Origin: Elusimicrobiales bacterium
GTDB lineage: Bacteria; Elusimicrobiota; Elusimicrobia; Elusimicrobiales; UBA9959
DNA: 50,519 nt
Direction: 5' to 3'
Assembly: GCA_036171915.1 (NCBI GenBank)
Contig: JAVHRY010000039.1
Location: forward strand, 1-50,519
The position numbers and the translations under genes are program-made. The notes beneath the pieces are model-generated. The model worked only from the letters and a program-made list of their open reading frames with translations, searched no databases and was not told the origin of the DNA. Below are positions 44,327-47,157 of the stretch, piece after piece. The first letter of the stretch is position 1, and every line of letters begins with the position of its first letter.

Positions 44327-45808
44327 TTACCTGCCCGCGATCTCCAGATAACCCTTAACTTCGGCCGCGATCTTTTCCGCGTAAGCTTTGTCTTCAAGGC
44401 CTTCCGCGTTTATAAAGACGTTCTCGGCCGCGCAGCGTATGGCCGCCTCAAGCTGGTAGCGCGCGCTCCGGTAGTCCGAAGCCACCTGCCGTGAAACCAG
44501 GGTTTCACAGACGGTAAGCCCGGCCAGGGCCTCCGAGGCCAGGCGCGCGGTCTTTAGCGGCACCTCGGCCGCGTGCTTCAGGGCGGCCTGCATTTTCACC
44601 TTGCGCTCCGGGTCGTCCTTGGGGAGCTTCATAGCCTCCATGAAGCCGTCAAAAGAGGCCGAGTCTTCCGCCACGCAGTTCTGCAGCGCCACTTTGTGCG
44701 AACCCAGGCGTTCGGAAAGGTCGCGCATGGCGGGTTTCTTGGCTTCGTCGAGCTTCTTGCTCCGGAGGCTGATACCCAGGGCCATCTGCCCCAGCGCGCA
44801 GCCCATGGCGCCGTTCACCGCGCCGGCCGAGCCGCCGCCGGGCGTGGGGTCGGTATTGGCGAGCGCGTCCACGAACAGGTTGGCCGCGGCCTGCCAGGAG
44901 CTCAGCAGTTTCAGAAGTTTCGTCTCCAGCACCTGCTCGTCCTTCTTGAAATCCTTTACATTGAGCGCTTCCACGGCGTAATCCGTTATGGCGTCCTGCG
45001 TGGTGAGGCCTATCAACTCCGTGCCGGTAATGGCTATATTTTTAGGGGCCAGCTCTTTGGCCAGCTCGTCCATAACGCGCTTTATGCTGGTGGTGCGGTA
45101 GTCGGTCAGCACGGTGGACATCTGCACCTGGCCCTTGGACTCCAGGAAGATCTCCTTGGCGCGCAGGGCTGGCAGGCCGCCGCCGGAAGTGCGTATTTTC
45201 TTCGCCAGTATTTTGGCGAAGTCCATGTCGGTGGTGGCAAGGTTCACGTTGAAATTCACTATCTGGTTGCGGGCGCCAACGGCCATCGCGCCGGCGGTGG
45301 GGTGGATGTGGTTGGGCCCGAAATCCGGCACGCGCTCCGGGTCCTTGCCGATGACCTCGCGCAGCCCTTCGAACTGGCCCTTGCGCACCTTGGCGAGGTC
45401 CTTGCGGTGTTCGAACTTGGCGGCCCGGTCATAAAGATAGACCGGGATGTTCAGCTCGCGGCCGATCCGCTCGCCGGCCTTCTCGGCCAGCTTTATGCAG
45501 TCCTCTATCGTGGATTCCATCACGGGGATAAAAGGAGCCACGTCGGTGGCTCCCATGCGGGGGTGCTCGCCCTTGTGGCGGTTCAGGTCGATAAGCTGAG
45601 AGGCTTTCTTGGTGACCGCGAACATGGCGTCGGCGGCGGTCTCTACGGGGGCTATAAAGGTGAGCACGGTGCGGTTGTGGTCGGCGTCTTTTTCCACGTC
45701 CAGCACCAGCACCCCGGGCACGGCCCTGGCCGCGTCGACAATAGCGTTTATTTTAGAAAGATCCCGGCCTTCGCTGAAATTAGGCACACATTCGACAAAT
45801 TTACCCAT
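44327..45808 (-). CDS. ftcD: Bifunctional glutamate formiminotransferase / formiminotetrahydrofolate cyclodeaminase
   Basis: VECVPNFSEGR, DADHNRTV, HPRMGATDV, VRKGQFEG; C-terminal cyclodeaminase domain PTPGGGSA..AAEVPL. Confidence 0.93.
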   Translation of the reverse strand: MGKFVECVPNFSEGRDLSKINAIVDAARAVPGVLVLDVEKDADHNRTVLTFIAPVETAADAMFAVTKKASQLIDLNRHKGEHPRMGATDVAPFIPVMESTIEDCIKLAEKAGERIGRELNIPVYLYDRAAKFEHRKDLAKVRKGQFEGLREVIGKDPERVPDFGPNHIHPTAGAMAVGARNQIVNFNVNLATTDMDFAKILAKKIRTSGGGLPALRAKEIFLESKGQVQMSTVLTDYRTTSIKRVMDELAKELAPKNIAITGTELIGLTTQDAITDYAVEALNVKDFKKDEQVLETKLLKLLSSWQAAANLFVDALANTDPTPGGGSAGAVNGAMGCALGQMALGISLRSKKLDEAKKPAMRDLSERLGSHKVALQNCVAEDSASFDGFMEAMKLPKDDPERKVKMQAALKHAAEVPLKTARLASEALAGLTVCETLVSRQVASDYRSARYQLEAAIRCAAENVFINAEGLEDKAYAEKIAAEVKGYLEIAGR

Positions 45809-45895
45809 AAGGGCTCCTTGAACTTGCGCGGGCCGCTATTAGCGCCCGCTTATATATTTAAATTATACTAATTAGGACGAAGGACAGGAAGGTTA

Positions 45896-46357
45896 GGGCT
45901 CGTTAAAGAATAACTGACGCATTTGGGGCCCATATTTGAGCCGGATGCAAGGCGCGACGAACGAGCATACCGGTGGCTGTGGGTGGAGCGAAGCGACACA
46001 ATTCAAGAACAAGTGAGGAGCAAAGCGGCAGCCGGCTCAAAGATGGGCCTCCCCCTTGGGGCTTAGCCGCTTTCGGGCTGCGCCTTCGCGGCATTCCGCT
46101 AAAGCACGTGTAGTACATATTGCTCCATGCCGCTTCGGCTAGGAGCCTGTCCGACATAAGGCTTTCATGACGAAATTGACGATTTTGGAGCCGAGCCGAA
46201 GCGACGCGAAACGAGCACCCTCGACGGAGGTTGTAAGTTGAGCGTCGCGAAGGCGCAGGACAAAAGCGGCAATTGCAGGCGAAATTGCTTATGTCGGACA
46301 GGCTCCTAGCTCCAAAATCAGCTCAGCCAAATGCGTCAGTTATTCTTTAACGAGCCC
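45896..46357. mobile_element. MITE family B (outer element, about 295 bp without the nested insert)
   Basis: Perfect 31-bp terminal inverted repeats GGGCTCGTTAAAGAATAACTGACGCATTTGG (45896-45926 and 46327-46357) flanked by direct TTA (45893-45895, 46358-46360). Confidence 0.88.
46139..46309. mobile_element. MITE family A, copy 2, nested inside MITE B
   Basis: Perfect 22-bp inverted ends CTAGGAGCCTGTCCGACATAAG; 14 substitutions and no indels relative to 27829-27999. Confidence 0.92.
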
Positions 46358-46367
46358 TTAGCGGGAG

Positions 46368-46453
46368 GAAATGCGAAAACCCGCTTTTGGCGGGTTTTCG
46401 CTTCCCCTTGAATCGGGGAGTTCTCAGTTAGTGGCCGTTCTATGCCGGCGACT
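46368..46453 (-). ncRNA. Candidate stand-alone small RNA with three stem-loops
   Basis: Lies between a near-consensus promoter and a 12-bp terminator-like hairpin; AGUCGCCG-GCAUAGAA-CGGCCACU and UCCCC-GAUUCAA-GGGGA stems; no ORF. Confidence 0.55.
46373..46401 (-). terminator. Terminator-like hairpin closing the candidate sRNA
   Basis: gcgaaaacccgc-ttttg-gcgggttttcgc, a perfect 12-bp stem; only a short AUUU tail on the minus strand. Confidence 0.6.
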
Positions 46454-46459
46454 GGATAT

Positions 46460-46488
46460 AATGTAGCAGAAAAGACTTGACTTGTCAA
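46460..46488 (-). promoter_or_regulatory. Sigma70-type promoter TTGACA-N17-TACATT with extended -10 TG
   Basis: Minus strand reads TTGACA agtcaagtcttttctgc TACATT. Confidence 0.75.
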
Positions 46489-46500
46489 GAGCCACCCCGG

Positions 46501-47157
46501 TTACTGCCCCTGGGCGGCCCGGTTCTTCCAGACGCTGTAATGCAGCACTAACATGATATCCAGGTTATCGGCGCTGTTAAGGCTGAAATTGGCGCCCTTC
46601 ATGTTGAAAATATGGTGCCAGCGCAGGTCCAGTCCCGCCCGCGTCCCCCACCAGAAAGGGTAGGTTACCCCGCCGCCAAGGTTAACCCCGGCGCTGGAAC
46701 CGGAATCGGAGGCATAGCGCACGCCGCCGGAAGCGAAAGCGGGCTGCGTCCACTGGTAAACACCCGCCCCGAACACGCCGTAATAAATCTTGTCCCCCTC
46801 AGGGAACGAGGCCCTGACAAAAGGAGTAAAAGAGAATATCTTAAGCCCCAGGTCTTTCATTACACGGTTCTCGTGGCGCAGGGAATAGGACGATTCCAGC
46901 CCATAACTAAGGACCTCGTCCACCCGCTTTAAGGCCGCCAGGCTGAAAGCCGGGGAAGACTTGAACCCGGCATCCTTATCCCCCCAATGTCCGCCGAACG
47001 GCAGCGTCCAACCGCCGCCCCCCGAGATGTAACCGGCGATGTAGCGCGGCGGCTCCGGCAGGTCCTCAAGCCCGGGCAGGCCGTCCGCCGGCGCGGCCGC
47101 GCCGGACCCGGCGCAGGCGCAGAGGCAGAATAGGACCAGGCCCGCGGCCTTTTTCAT
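46501..47157 (-). CDS. Outer membrane beta-barrel protein
   Basis: Signal peptide; alternating beta strands YGVFGAGVY, GVNLGGGVTY, AGLDLRWHHIF. Confidence 0.7.
   Translation of the reverse strand: MKKAAGLVLFCLCACAGSGAAAPADGLPGLEDLPEPPRYIAGYISGGGGWTLPFGGHWGDKDAGFKSSPAFSLAALKRVDEVLSYGLESSYSLRHENRVMKDLGLKIFSFTPFVRASFPEGDKIYYGVFGAGVYQWTQPAFASGGVRYASDSGSSAGVNLGGGVTYPFWWGTRAGLDLRWHHIFNMKGANFSLNSADNLDIMLVLHYSVWKNRAAQGQ

Follow-up and report, generated by a model that had tools for sequence, protein, structure and literature searches.

The stretch of DNA analysed here (the window, 50,519 nt in its full length) comes from contig C39 of a metagenome-assembled genome (MAG) of an Elusimicrobiales bacterium, a genome of 2.26 Mb in 144 contigs, with 58.5% GC and 89% complete. 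Between two minus-strand genes of the window, one for a formiminotransferase-cyclodeaminase (44327-45808) and the other for an outer-membrane beta-barrel protein (46501-47157), direct reading and a repeat finder delineate three nested layers within 1.3 kb. The outermost is a 462-nt MITE (miniature inverted-repeat transposable element) at 45896-46357, with 31-nt terminal inverted repeats (TIRs) and a TTA target-site duplication on each side (45893-46360 with the duplications). It encloses two hairpin modules, one on each strand, at 45927-46049 and, read on the minus strand, at 46066-46138 plus 46310-46326, and the second of these holds a further MITE of 163 nt with a CTAG duplication, here called MITE A, without which the outer element measures 295 nt. 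The subject of this report is the module that MITE A and the outer element both carry, each in its own version, namely the apical ~90 nt of a rod-shaped fold-back (hereafter, the core). Judged from sequence, the core is a well-supported structured motif, with 19 of 21 base pairs covarying, and is absent from Rfam; it is found across the phylum Elusimicrobiota in MITEs whose ends belong to different families of insertion sequences (ISs). The features of the locus are as follows.

45893-45895, no strand: left TTA duplication of the outer element (direct reading; the same TTA follows the right TIR, and relatives in other MAGs are flanked by TAA/TTA)
45896-45926, plus strand: left TIR of the outer element, GGGCTCGTTAAAGAATAACTGACGCATTTGG (repeat finder: 32-nt arms, 100% complementary, the first base being part of TTA)
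45927-46049, plus strand as the purine-rich strand: outer element, module 2 ("type 2" core), closed by a 22-bp stem (45927-45948 with 46028-46049)
45981-46009 (boundaries ±2 nt), plus strand: insert of 29 nt, GGGTGGAGCGAAGCGACACAATTCAAGAA..., at the apex of module 2, opposite a 29-column gap in four of four relatives
46050-46065, no strand: inter-module spacer with a small CCCC...GGGG hairpin (direct reading; conserved in relatives)
46066-46138, minus strand as the purine-rich strand: 3' three-quarters of the "type 1" core (module 1) in the outer element (59.4 bits with the covariance model, E 1.8e-17, this module being one of the 75 rows of the seed; nhmmer E 0.006)
46139-46142, no strand: left CTAG duplication of MITE A (CTAG on both sides; TTAG/TTAG and CCAG/CCAG at other copies)
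46143-46305, plus strand: MITE A, 163 nt, a rod hairpin over its whole length with 23-nt perfect TIRs (the repeat-finder arms, 46138-46160 and 46288-46310, include the flanking CTAG)
46181-46270, plus strand: type 1 core of MITE A, with stems S1-S5 split by the purine loops GAA/GAA, GA/GA and GA/AA
46306-46309, no strand: right CTAG duplication of MITE A (direct reading)
46310-46326, minus strand: 5' quarter of module 1 (GATTTTGGAG plus linker), separated from the remainder by MITE A
46327-46357, minus strand: right TIR of the outer element (repeat finder)
46358-46360, no strand: right TTA duplication of the outer element (direct reading)

An earlier, sequence-only reading had seen in this region two MITEs with unrelated ends, MITE A and a "MITE B" at 45927-46326. 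The latter does not stand as an element of its own, as it lacks terminal repeats, is single-copy in the genome, and is in fact the interior of the outer 31-nt-TIR element. The likeness between the two that the same reading had described could be reproduced in full: the right arm of B, read on the minus strand (46320 to 46310, one CTAG, then 46138 to 46066), gives the string that was quoted and aligns with the interior of MITE A at 46181-46270, the central stem differs at three pairs on both sides at once (GCGGCAT/ATGCCGC in B, GCGACGC/GCGTCGC in A), and the GCC-GAA / GAA-GGC internal loop is the same in the two. The repeat finder reports an inverted match of 25 nt at 88% between 46066-46090 and 46246-46270, and the resemblance goes beyond chance, as a hidden Markov model (HMM) built from A-family and hybrid cores alone matches the B module with an E-value of 0.006 in the 2.26-Mb genome. 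The left-arm hairpin of 22 bp was likewise recovered by the repeat finder (22 nt, 91%); it contains AAGGCGC, AACGAGCA and AAGTGAG, and is a homologue of the type 2 core. The alignment of relatives, the covariance model and this type 2 homology all bear out the proposal that B consists of two head-to-head modules and A of one.

Relatives of the outer element in other MAGs are ~90% identical to it, and three loci (L089, L053 and L058) carry TIRs nearly identical to its own. When aligned with four relatives, the window copy shows two insertions, one of 167 nt (MITE A plus one CTAG) and the other of 29 nt in the apex of the other module. The sequence at the first of these is GGAGCGAGCC in the relatives and GGAGCTAG[A]CTAGCC in the window; all four relatives, which are paralogous copies at other loci, are uninterrupted where the window copy holds MITE A. 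Read depth over MITE A was ~100 times that of its flanks in four DNA sequencing runs, as expected for a repeat. A clean joint of the empty site was absent across the same four runs, which yielded a few ambiguous joints with sides of 23-42 nt, and this result was not used. Module 2, which folds as RNA at -47.3 kcal/mol (z -3.8), is homologous to the core of a second MITE family of the source genome (the D family) and to module 2 of the relatives, and it scores just 6.8 bits with the covariance model because of the 29-nt insert. The start of that insert is a ~24-nt word, GGTGGAGCGAAGCGACACAATTCA, that usually follows CGCG and occurs in ~10 copies in varied contexts of the source genome (45981-46009 in the window, and C4:17290, C11:21546, C23:372, C29:71, C67:20415, C87:23660, C112:256 and C143:18650); in several elements of another genome (G004) it takes the place of the core apex. 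A search of Rfam found nothing around seven of the sites of this word, which might be the end or the footprint of another small element.

The core proved to be common in the source genome, where an HMM search gave 33 strong matches. MITE A itself has 29 matches there, 24 in genome G014 and 15 in G004, and A-end copies in the source genome number ~30. A second set of ends (D ends, CAGTCTGCTGAAAAAGCC), flanked by 4-bp YTAR duplications that include TTAA, TTAG and CTAA, forms 14 pairs spaced ~161 nt apart, and the type 2 core is the body of these D-family MITEs. Other combinations of ends and cores in the same genome comprise D ends with an A-type core (hybrids), an A-variant end, and longer D elements with extra hairpin cassettes. 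Nearly all copies with A or D ends contain the core, the exceptions being three coreless "mini-A" elements of 53-54 nt (C36:15402, C66:34886 and C143:6109), which consist of two A TIRs and a few linker bases. In a chimera at C116:11498-11792, a minus-strand A-type core is joined at the apical loop to a D-type core, which suggests recombination or template switching at the apex. The extra cassettes (~46 nt and ~125 nt) sit at a fixed spot just 3' of the core, after GCAGG, and give rise to 286-nt D elements; they were seen at C102:26108-26393, C116:18731-19015 and C118:756-1041, and also in L053 and at several G004 loci.

On a wider scale, one genome from each of 185,579 species was searched with an exact pattern that covers the two arms of the core. 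It matched 75 loci, 68 of which are labelled Elusimicrobia, -ales, -aceae or -ota and seven simply "bacterium". A covariance model built from 75 distinct cores, and run on 151 genomes drawn evenly from Elusimicrobiota, found matches in 32 of the genomes and 25 of 62 genera; with this model neither of the two genera with small genomes gave a match (0 of 13 and 0 of 30). When 178 core instances were pooled, TIRs of at least 14 nt were found in 132 of them and fell into 27 automatic clusters, a number that over-splits the ~15-18 end types judged by eye. The mean column identity of the cores is 78% over 75 sequences, and the ends form many types that cannot be aligned with one another. Elements with one core tend to be 160-170 nt long, and those with two cores 260-330 nt. 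One core-bearing MITE with D-like ends was found in a tailed-phage contig of IMG/VR (14.9 kb; L137:7760-7920), between the genes for a tail-assembly chaperone and a tape-measure protein, so that phages may carry such elements between Elusimicrobia hosts. In three genomes of a low-GC genus, AT-rich cores (GC 0.29-0.31) lie at flank-conserved, apparently orthologous sites (L158:2003-2095, L159:1982-2266 and L160:1803-2099); in L158, the one in which the genes are annotated, the site falls between an Iso_dh gene and a semialdehyde dehydrogenase gene. Here one or two cores are present depending on the genome and clear TIRs were not seen, and this may be an insertion of old date that has been domesticated or is decaying.

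In their ends, target duplications, size, copy number and lack of a transposase gene, the elements of the window are ordinary MITEs. Both have perfect TIRs (arms of 23 nt in MITE A and 32 nt in the outer element) and target-site duplications (CTAG and TTA, respectively, with TTAG/TTAG and CCAG/CCAG at other A copies), both are small (163 and 462 nt) and free of a transposase gene, copies are numerous in the source genome (29 matches to MITE A and 33 strong ones to the core), and ends shared with autonomous ISs were found for the A ends, the D ends and the GGGCCCGCGC ends. The A ends match over ~24 nt those of L119, a 1606-nt element that encodes a 467-aa transposase of the IS1182 family and is flanked by CTAG; the D ends match L122, of 1.38 kb, with a 384-aa IS1182/IS5-like transposase; and the GGGCCCGCGC ends match L114, a frameshifted 1.9-kb element of the ISAzo13 family flanked by TTA. 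The TIR of the outer element is similar to that of L114 without matching it exactly, and an exact autonomous partner was not found; in the source MAG, which is 89% complete, no DDE_Tnp_1, DDE_Tnp_1_2 or ISAzo13 transposase was found either. The view that the core is carried by different transposon ends therefore held up, the core being placed between many TIR types of which three could be traced to autonomous ISs of two families. The ends described as unrelated thus come from two or more IS families, with at least two lineages of the IS1182/IS5-like type and one of ISAzo13. The ISs with matching ends encode transposases and hold no core. At an E-value threshold of 10, nhmmer did not detect the core in any of six IS loci, from which it follows that the parent ISs did not leave the core behind as a remnant.

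A TA duplication of the IS630 type was considered for the A and D elements and set aside as less likely, as the copies flanked by TTAG/TTAG, CCAG/CCAG and CTAA/CTAA better fit a 4-bp duplication (at CTAG sites the two models give the same reading). A coreless 327-nt element with D-type ends in another genome (G024:C26:538861-539187) contains a fragment that matches the IS1182 transposase model over its last 52 positions at the C-terminus, and looks like an internal-deletion intermediate between IS and MITE. Many cores of the source genome lie 36-41 nt from the nearest open reading frame (ORF) boundary, so that the element end abuts the ORF, as placed by a crude gene caller that mis-called the flanks of the window locus. 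YTAR targets contain TAA or TAG, and stop codons may thus be favoured insertion sites in a GC-rich genome.

Evidence that the core is maintained as a fold came from two alignments, the larger samples in which the sequence-only reading had proposed to look for covariation. In the first (A1, 75 sequences), 21 pairs were scored, and the outer 3-bp stem and the GAA loops, being fixed by the search pattern, carry no independent weight. Paired cells amount to 88.8% in A1, against 24-41% with one side slid; double-sided change was seen in 14 of the 21 pairs, and double-sided cells numbered 213 compared to 82.5±7.4 in shuffled alignments, none of 500 shuffles being as high. In the second (A2, 25 sequences found phylum-wide by the model, with a core GC of 0.29-0.73), which was fitted to the model structure in a way that favours pairing, 19 of the 21 pairs changed on both sides, and paired cells reached 88.2% against 28-35% slid (score 0.717 against 0.204), the slid controls being far lower despite the fitting. 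Where core GC is near 0.3, a 7-bp stem GCATTTT/AAAATGC replaces GCGACGC/GCGTCGC, and the loops are still GAA/AAA and GA/GA. MITE A folds as RNA at -80.9 kcal/mol on the plus strand and -73.7 kcal/mol on the minus strand (z -7.8 and -8.2).

Comparison with Rfam brought up no described family. A search of positions 45300-47000 of the window against Rfam 15 gave no match at the gathering score, and nothing was found on a core in 14 further loci with other core types. The best E-value in the window, 0.76, fell on an adjacent hairpin, GC-rich and located directly outside the right TIR (46366-46408, 19-nt arms, 84% complementary, T-rich flanks); this hairpin has the appearance of a bidirectional terminator belonging to the gene upstream, and a simple terminator scan made no call there. 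A small peptide was also considered and discarded: the A core is crossed by a frame of 24 codons, but this is shifted by the indel that separates the A and B versions, and the loop sequence is not kept.

The two strands of the core are not equivalent. Loop columns are purine on one strand in 96% of cells in A1 (1081/1125) and in 88% in A2 (299/339), and the non-Watson-Crick cells of the stems are biased in the same sense, with 34 G·T against 12 A·C and 36 purine-purine against nine pyrimidine-pyrimidine. The apical helix has at its base a G·U pair, retained in 57 of the 61 cells scored in A1 (14 more are gapped) and in 21 of 25 in A2. The core of MITE A scores 101.5 bits with the covariance model on the plus strand and 20.9 bits on the minus strand, and the purine strand was the better folder in all four comparisons with RNA parameters and all three with DNA parameters. 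In two-module elements the cores face opposite ways, one purine-sense core on each strand, which would make a strand-dependent function independent of the orientation of insertion.

The idea of a structured cargo under selection is supported, with a qualification as to where the selection acts. In 26 full A copies of the source genome no extra constraint on the core was seen compared to the rest of the element, singletons per column being 0.48 in the TIRs, 0.31 in the linker, 0.34 in the paired core and 0.44 in the unpaired core. Gene orientation around the cores was assigned with a gene caller based on a codon model, which finds again the genes known to lie on either side of the locus. Between co-oriented genes, type 1 cores of the source genome are sense in 13 cases and antisense in six, type 2 cores in five and five, and cores at loci of other MAGs in 16 and 14, and none of these amounts to a significant bias. 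Convergent intergenic sites outnumber divergent ones nine to three among cores of the source genome, compared to 135 and 133 genome-wide. Because decay is even and no orientation is preferred, selection is better placed at element propagation, that is, in lineages still transposing; taken together, these data suggest that the constraint falls on lineages with continuing transposition and not on every copy once it is inserted, and the selected cargo of the sequence-only reading would be such between element lineages, not among copies once inserted.

The explanation that we tentatively favour, and which we regard as quite possible though short of probable, is that the core is a strand-specific, cis-acting structural chassis, working as RNA or single-stranded DNA and selected at the level of element propagation. 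Transposases would recognise just the outer 20-30 nt of these MITEs, and the core would have been joined repeatedly to new ends through nested insertion and recombination of the kind seen in the window. Traces of such events are the nesting of MITE A in the core of the outer element, the hybrids of D ends and A core, and the apex-joined chimera. The helices are kept by compensatory change while the purine loops and the G·U pair are kept on one strand, and the core thus would act as a single-stranded nucleic acid of defined polarity. It could help mobilisation in cis, for instance if the element folded so that both ends meet when one strand is exposed; alternatively, it might recruit a host factor, or make the MITE better tolerated by rendering its insertions harmless. 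Both the level of selection and the cis-acting role are what we infer from the observations on anatomy, distribution, covariation, strand asymmetry and absence from autonomous ISs.

Several points weigh against this explanation. The role in mobilisation is an inference from sequence comparison. Transposases of the IS1182 and ISAzo13 families are DDE enzymes, expected to act on double-stranded ends, so that the need for a fold in one strand does not suit them in any obvious way. With 65 private changes in the singleton test, its power is low. The fitting of A2 to the model structure, and the outer stem and GAA loops fixed by the pattern in A1, leave those parts of the alignments without independent weight. 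Finally, the core is kept at one apparently orthologous site in three low-GC genomes, which could hint at a function for the host. A bolder extension, which we consider doubtful, is that the core represents an unrecognised class of portable strand-specific rod, with fixed tandem-purine loops, able to turn any pair of ends into a successful MITE; it could bring a conserved factor, from the host or independent of the transposase, to single-stranded DNA (at the replication fork, for example) or act as RNA, and would be traded among at least two IS families and onto phage, phylum-wide.

A serious rival to the chassis explanation, although in our opinion an unlikely one, sees in the core a functional non-coding RNA, or an RNA element acting in cis, that the MITEs have spread, to the benefit of the host or, through the RNA, of the element itself. 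Such a rod hairpin with tandem G·A loops might bind a protein, stabilise or insulate neighbouring transcripts, or regulate in trans. Stems that covary, together with purine loops whose sequence is conserved and a G·U pair that is kept, are what usually marks a structured RNA, the folds lie far below those of shuffled controls (z -7.8 for MITE A and -8.2 for L098), and RNA read from either direction across a two-module element holds one purine-strand core, as there is one per strand; retention at the orthologous site of the three low-GC genomes would suit an RNA as well. The RNA reading, however, sits poorly with the lack of orientation bias relative to neighbouring genes (29 sense against 20 antisense), with a core that is no more constrained than the linker in inserted copies, and with the lack of a matching family in Rfam. 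Nor were promoter- or terminator-like sites found inside the window elements in a scan whose promoter consensus was that of sigma-70, which may not suit this phylum.

The neutral passenger is a serious rival as well, and we judge it slightly less likely again: the core would be the body of one ancestral MITE, recombined onto new ends, and its covariation would stem from palindrome dynamics such as template switching or hairpin-templated repair. Whole elements are indeed long imperfect palindromes on both strands, the apex-joined chimeras and the hybrids show that recombination is frequent, and inserted copies decay evenly, all of which a passenger would explain. The conserved loops, however, argue against it, as arm-to-arm correction should pair them up, yet they have remained unpaired, with 88-96% purine phylum-wide, and the G·U pair has persisted where correction should have resolved it. 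Moreover, the core can be aligned from a GC of 0.29 to one of 0.73 whereas the ends, which are needed for transposition, cannot be aligned between families, and nearly all A- and D-end copies of the source genome have retained it, with the three mini-A elements as the coreless ones. The last alternative, a site in double-stranded DNA for, e.g., a nucleoid or bending protein that aids synapsis of the ends, with the GAA and GA words as contacts, is very unlikely since a duplex needs no arm complementarity maintained through sequence change and yet 19 of 21 pairs covary, even though an element length near 160-170 bp across unrelated end types, the conserved loop sequences, and the CGAAATTG-like words on both sides of the core in several families would all agree with it.

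Among known systems, bacterial MITEs such as the Correia, ERIC/IRU and RPE elements are small, non-coding, intergenic and multi-copy fold-backs, flanked by TIRs and target-site duplications and mobilised in trans, and the core-bearing elements resemble them in these general features; to our knowledge, the interior is family-specific in those families. Bacterial interspersed mosaic elements (BIMEs), made of repetitive extragenic palindromic sequences (REPs), and the BOX elements of pneumococcus are built from a few hairpin modules in varied combinations and orientations, and the Elusimicrobia elements are similarly modular and hairpin-built. REPs are palindromes of 20-40 nt tied to Y1 transposases (RAYTs) and are devoid of TIRs and target duplications, unlike the elements described here, whose TIRs match ISs of the DDE type. 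A link to the REP/RAYT system was rejected for our elements on account of their TIRs and duplications, and also because the three Y1_Tnp ORFs of the source genome (C106:18287, C95:149 and C8:63147) adjoin none of the core matches listed; no repeats common to the flanks of these ORFs and the MITEs were found. The attC sites of integrons and the end hairpins of IS200/IS605 elements are imperfect hairpins of one strand, in which the fold and a few unpaired bases, and not the stem sequence, are conserved. The Elusimicrobia core is likewise one-stranded and conserved in its fold, but attC and the IS200/IS605 hairpins are recombination sites of tyrosine or HUH enzymes, whereas the ends that move in our elements are ordinary TIRs, which lie beyond the core.

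The nearest precedent that we found is a group of coral MITEs (CMITEs), in which conservation between families is higher for the interior than for the TIRs. This interior is of unknown origin and is absent from the piggyBac-like autonomous transposon; the authors speculate that it aids transposition (Wang et al. 2010, PMC2872659). The Elusimicrobia elements share the more conserved interior and its absence from the autonomous element, a likeness in behaviour only. CMITEs are in fact eukaryotic and, in the passages of that paper considered here, all carry the piggyBac TIR motif and depend on one transposase superfamily, whereas our ends come from two bacterial IS families; those passages do not describe a fold or covariation of the interior, which in our case is a covarying, strand-asymmetric hairpin. 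Another system to compare is that of IStrons, in which a structured RNA module lives in symbiosis with different DNA transposons and is thought to make their insertions harmless (PMC4227781). According to the parts of that source used here, however, the IStron RNA is a self-splicing group I intron of several hundred nucleotides on autonomous ISs, while the core is a 90-nt rod on non-autonomous elements with no ribozyme match in Rfam. Our literature search, which did not extend to supplements and subscription journals, found nothing on MITEs of Elusimicrobia or on a core common to bacterial MITE families of different IS families.

What is unusual in these otherwise ordinary MITEs is therefore a covarying, strand-asymmetric core, kept across the phylum and common to MITEs of different IS families. 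For annotation this carries a warning, in that strong covariation in an intergenic hairpin need not indicate an RNA gene of the host. The core also provides a practical marker for the genomes of Elusimicrobia and of their phages. The interiors of MITEs are usually treated as filler, yet here a folded core has been kept phylum-wide while the ends swap between IS families, and it offers a testable case of what, besides its ends, makes a non-autonomous element succeed.

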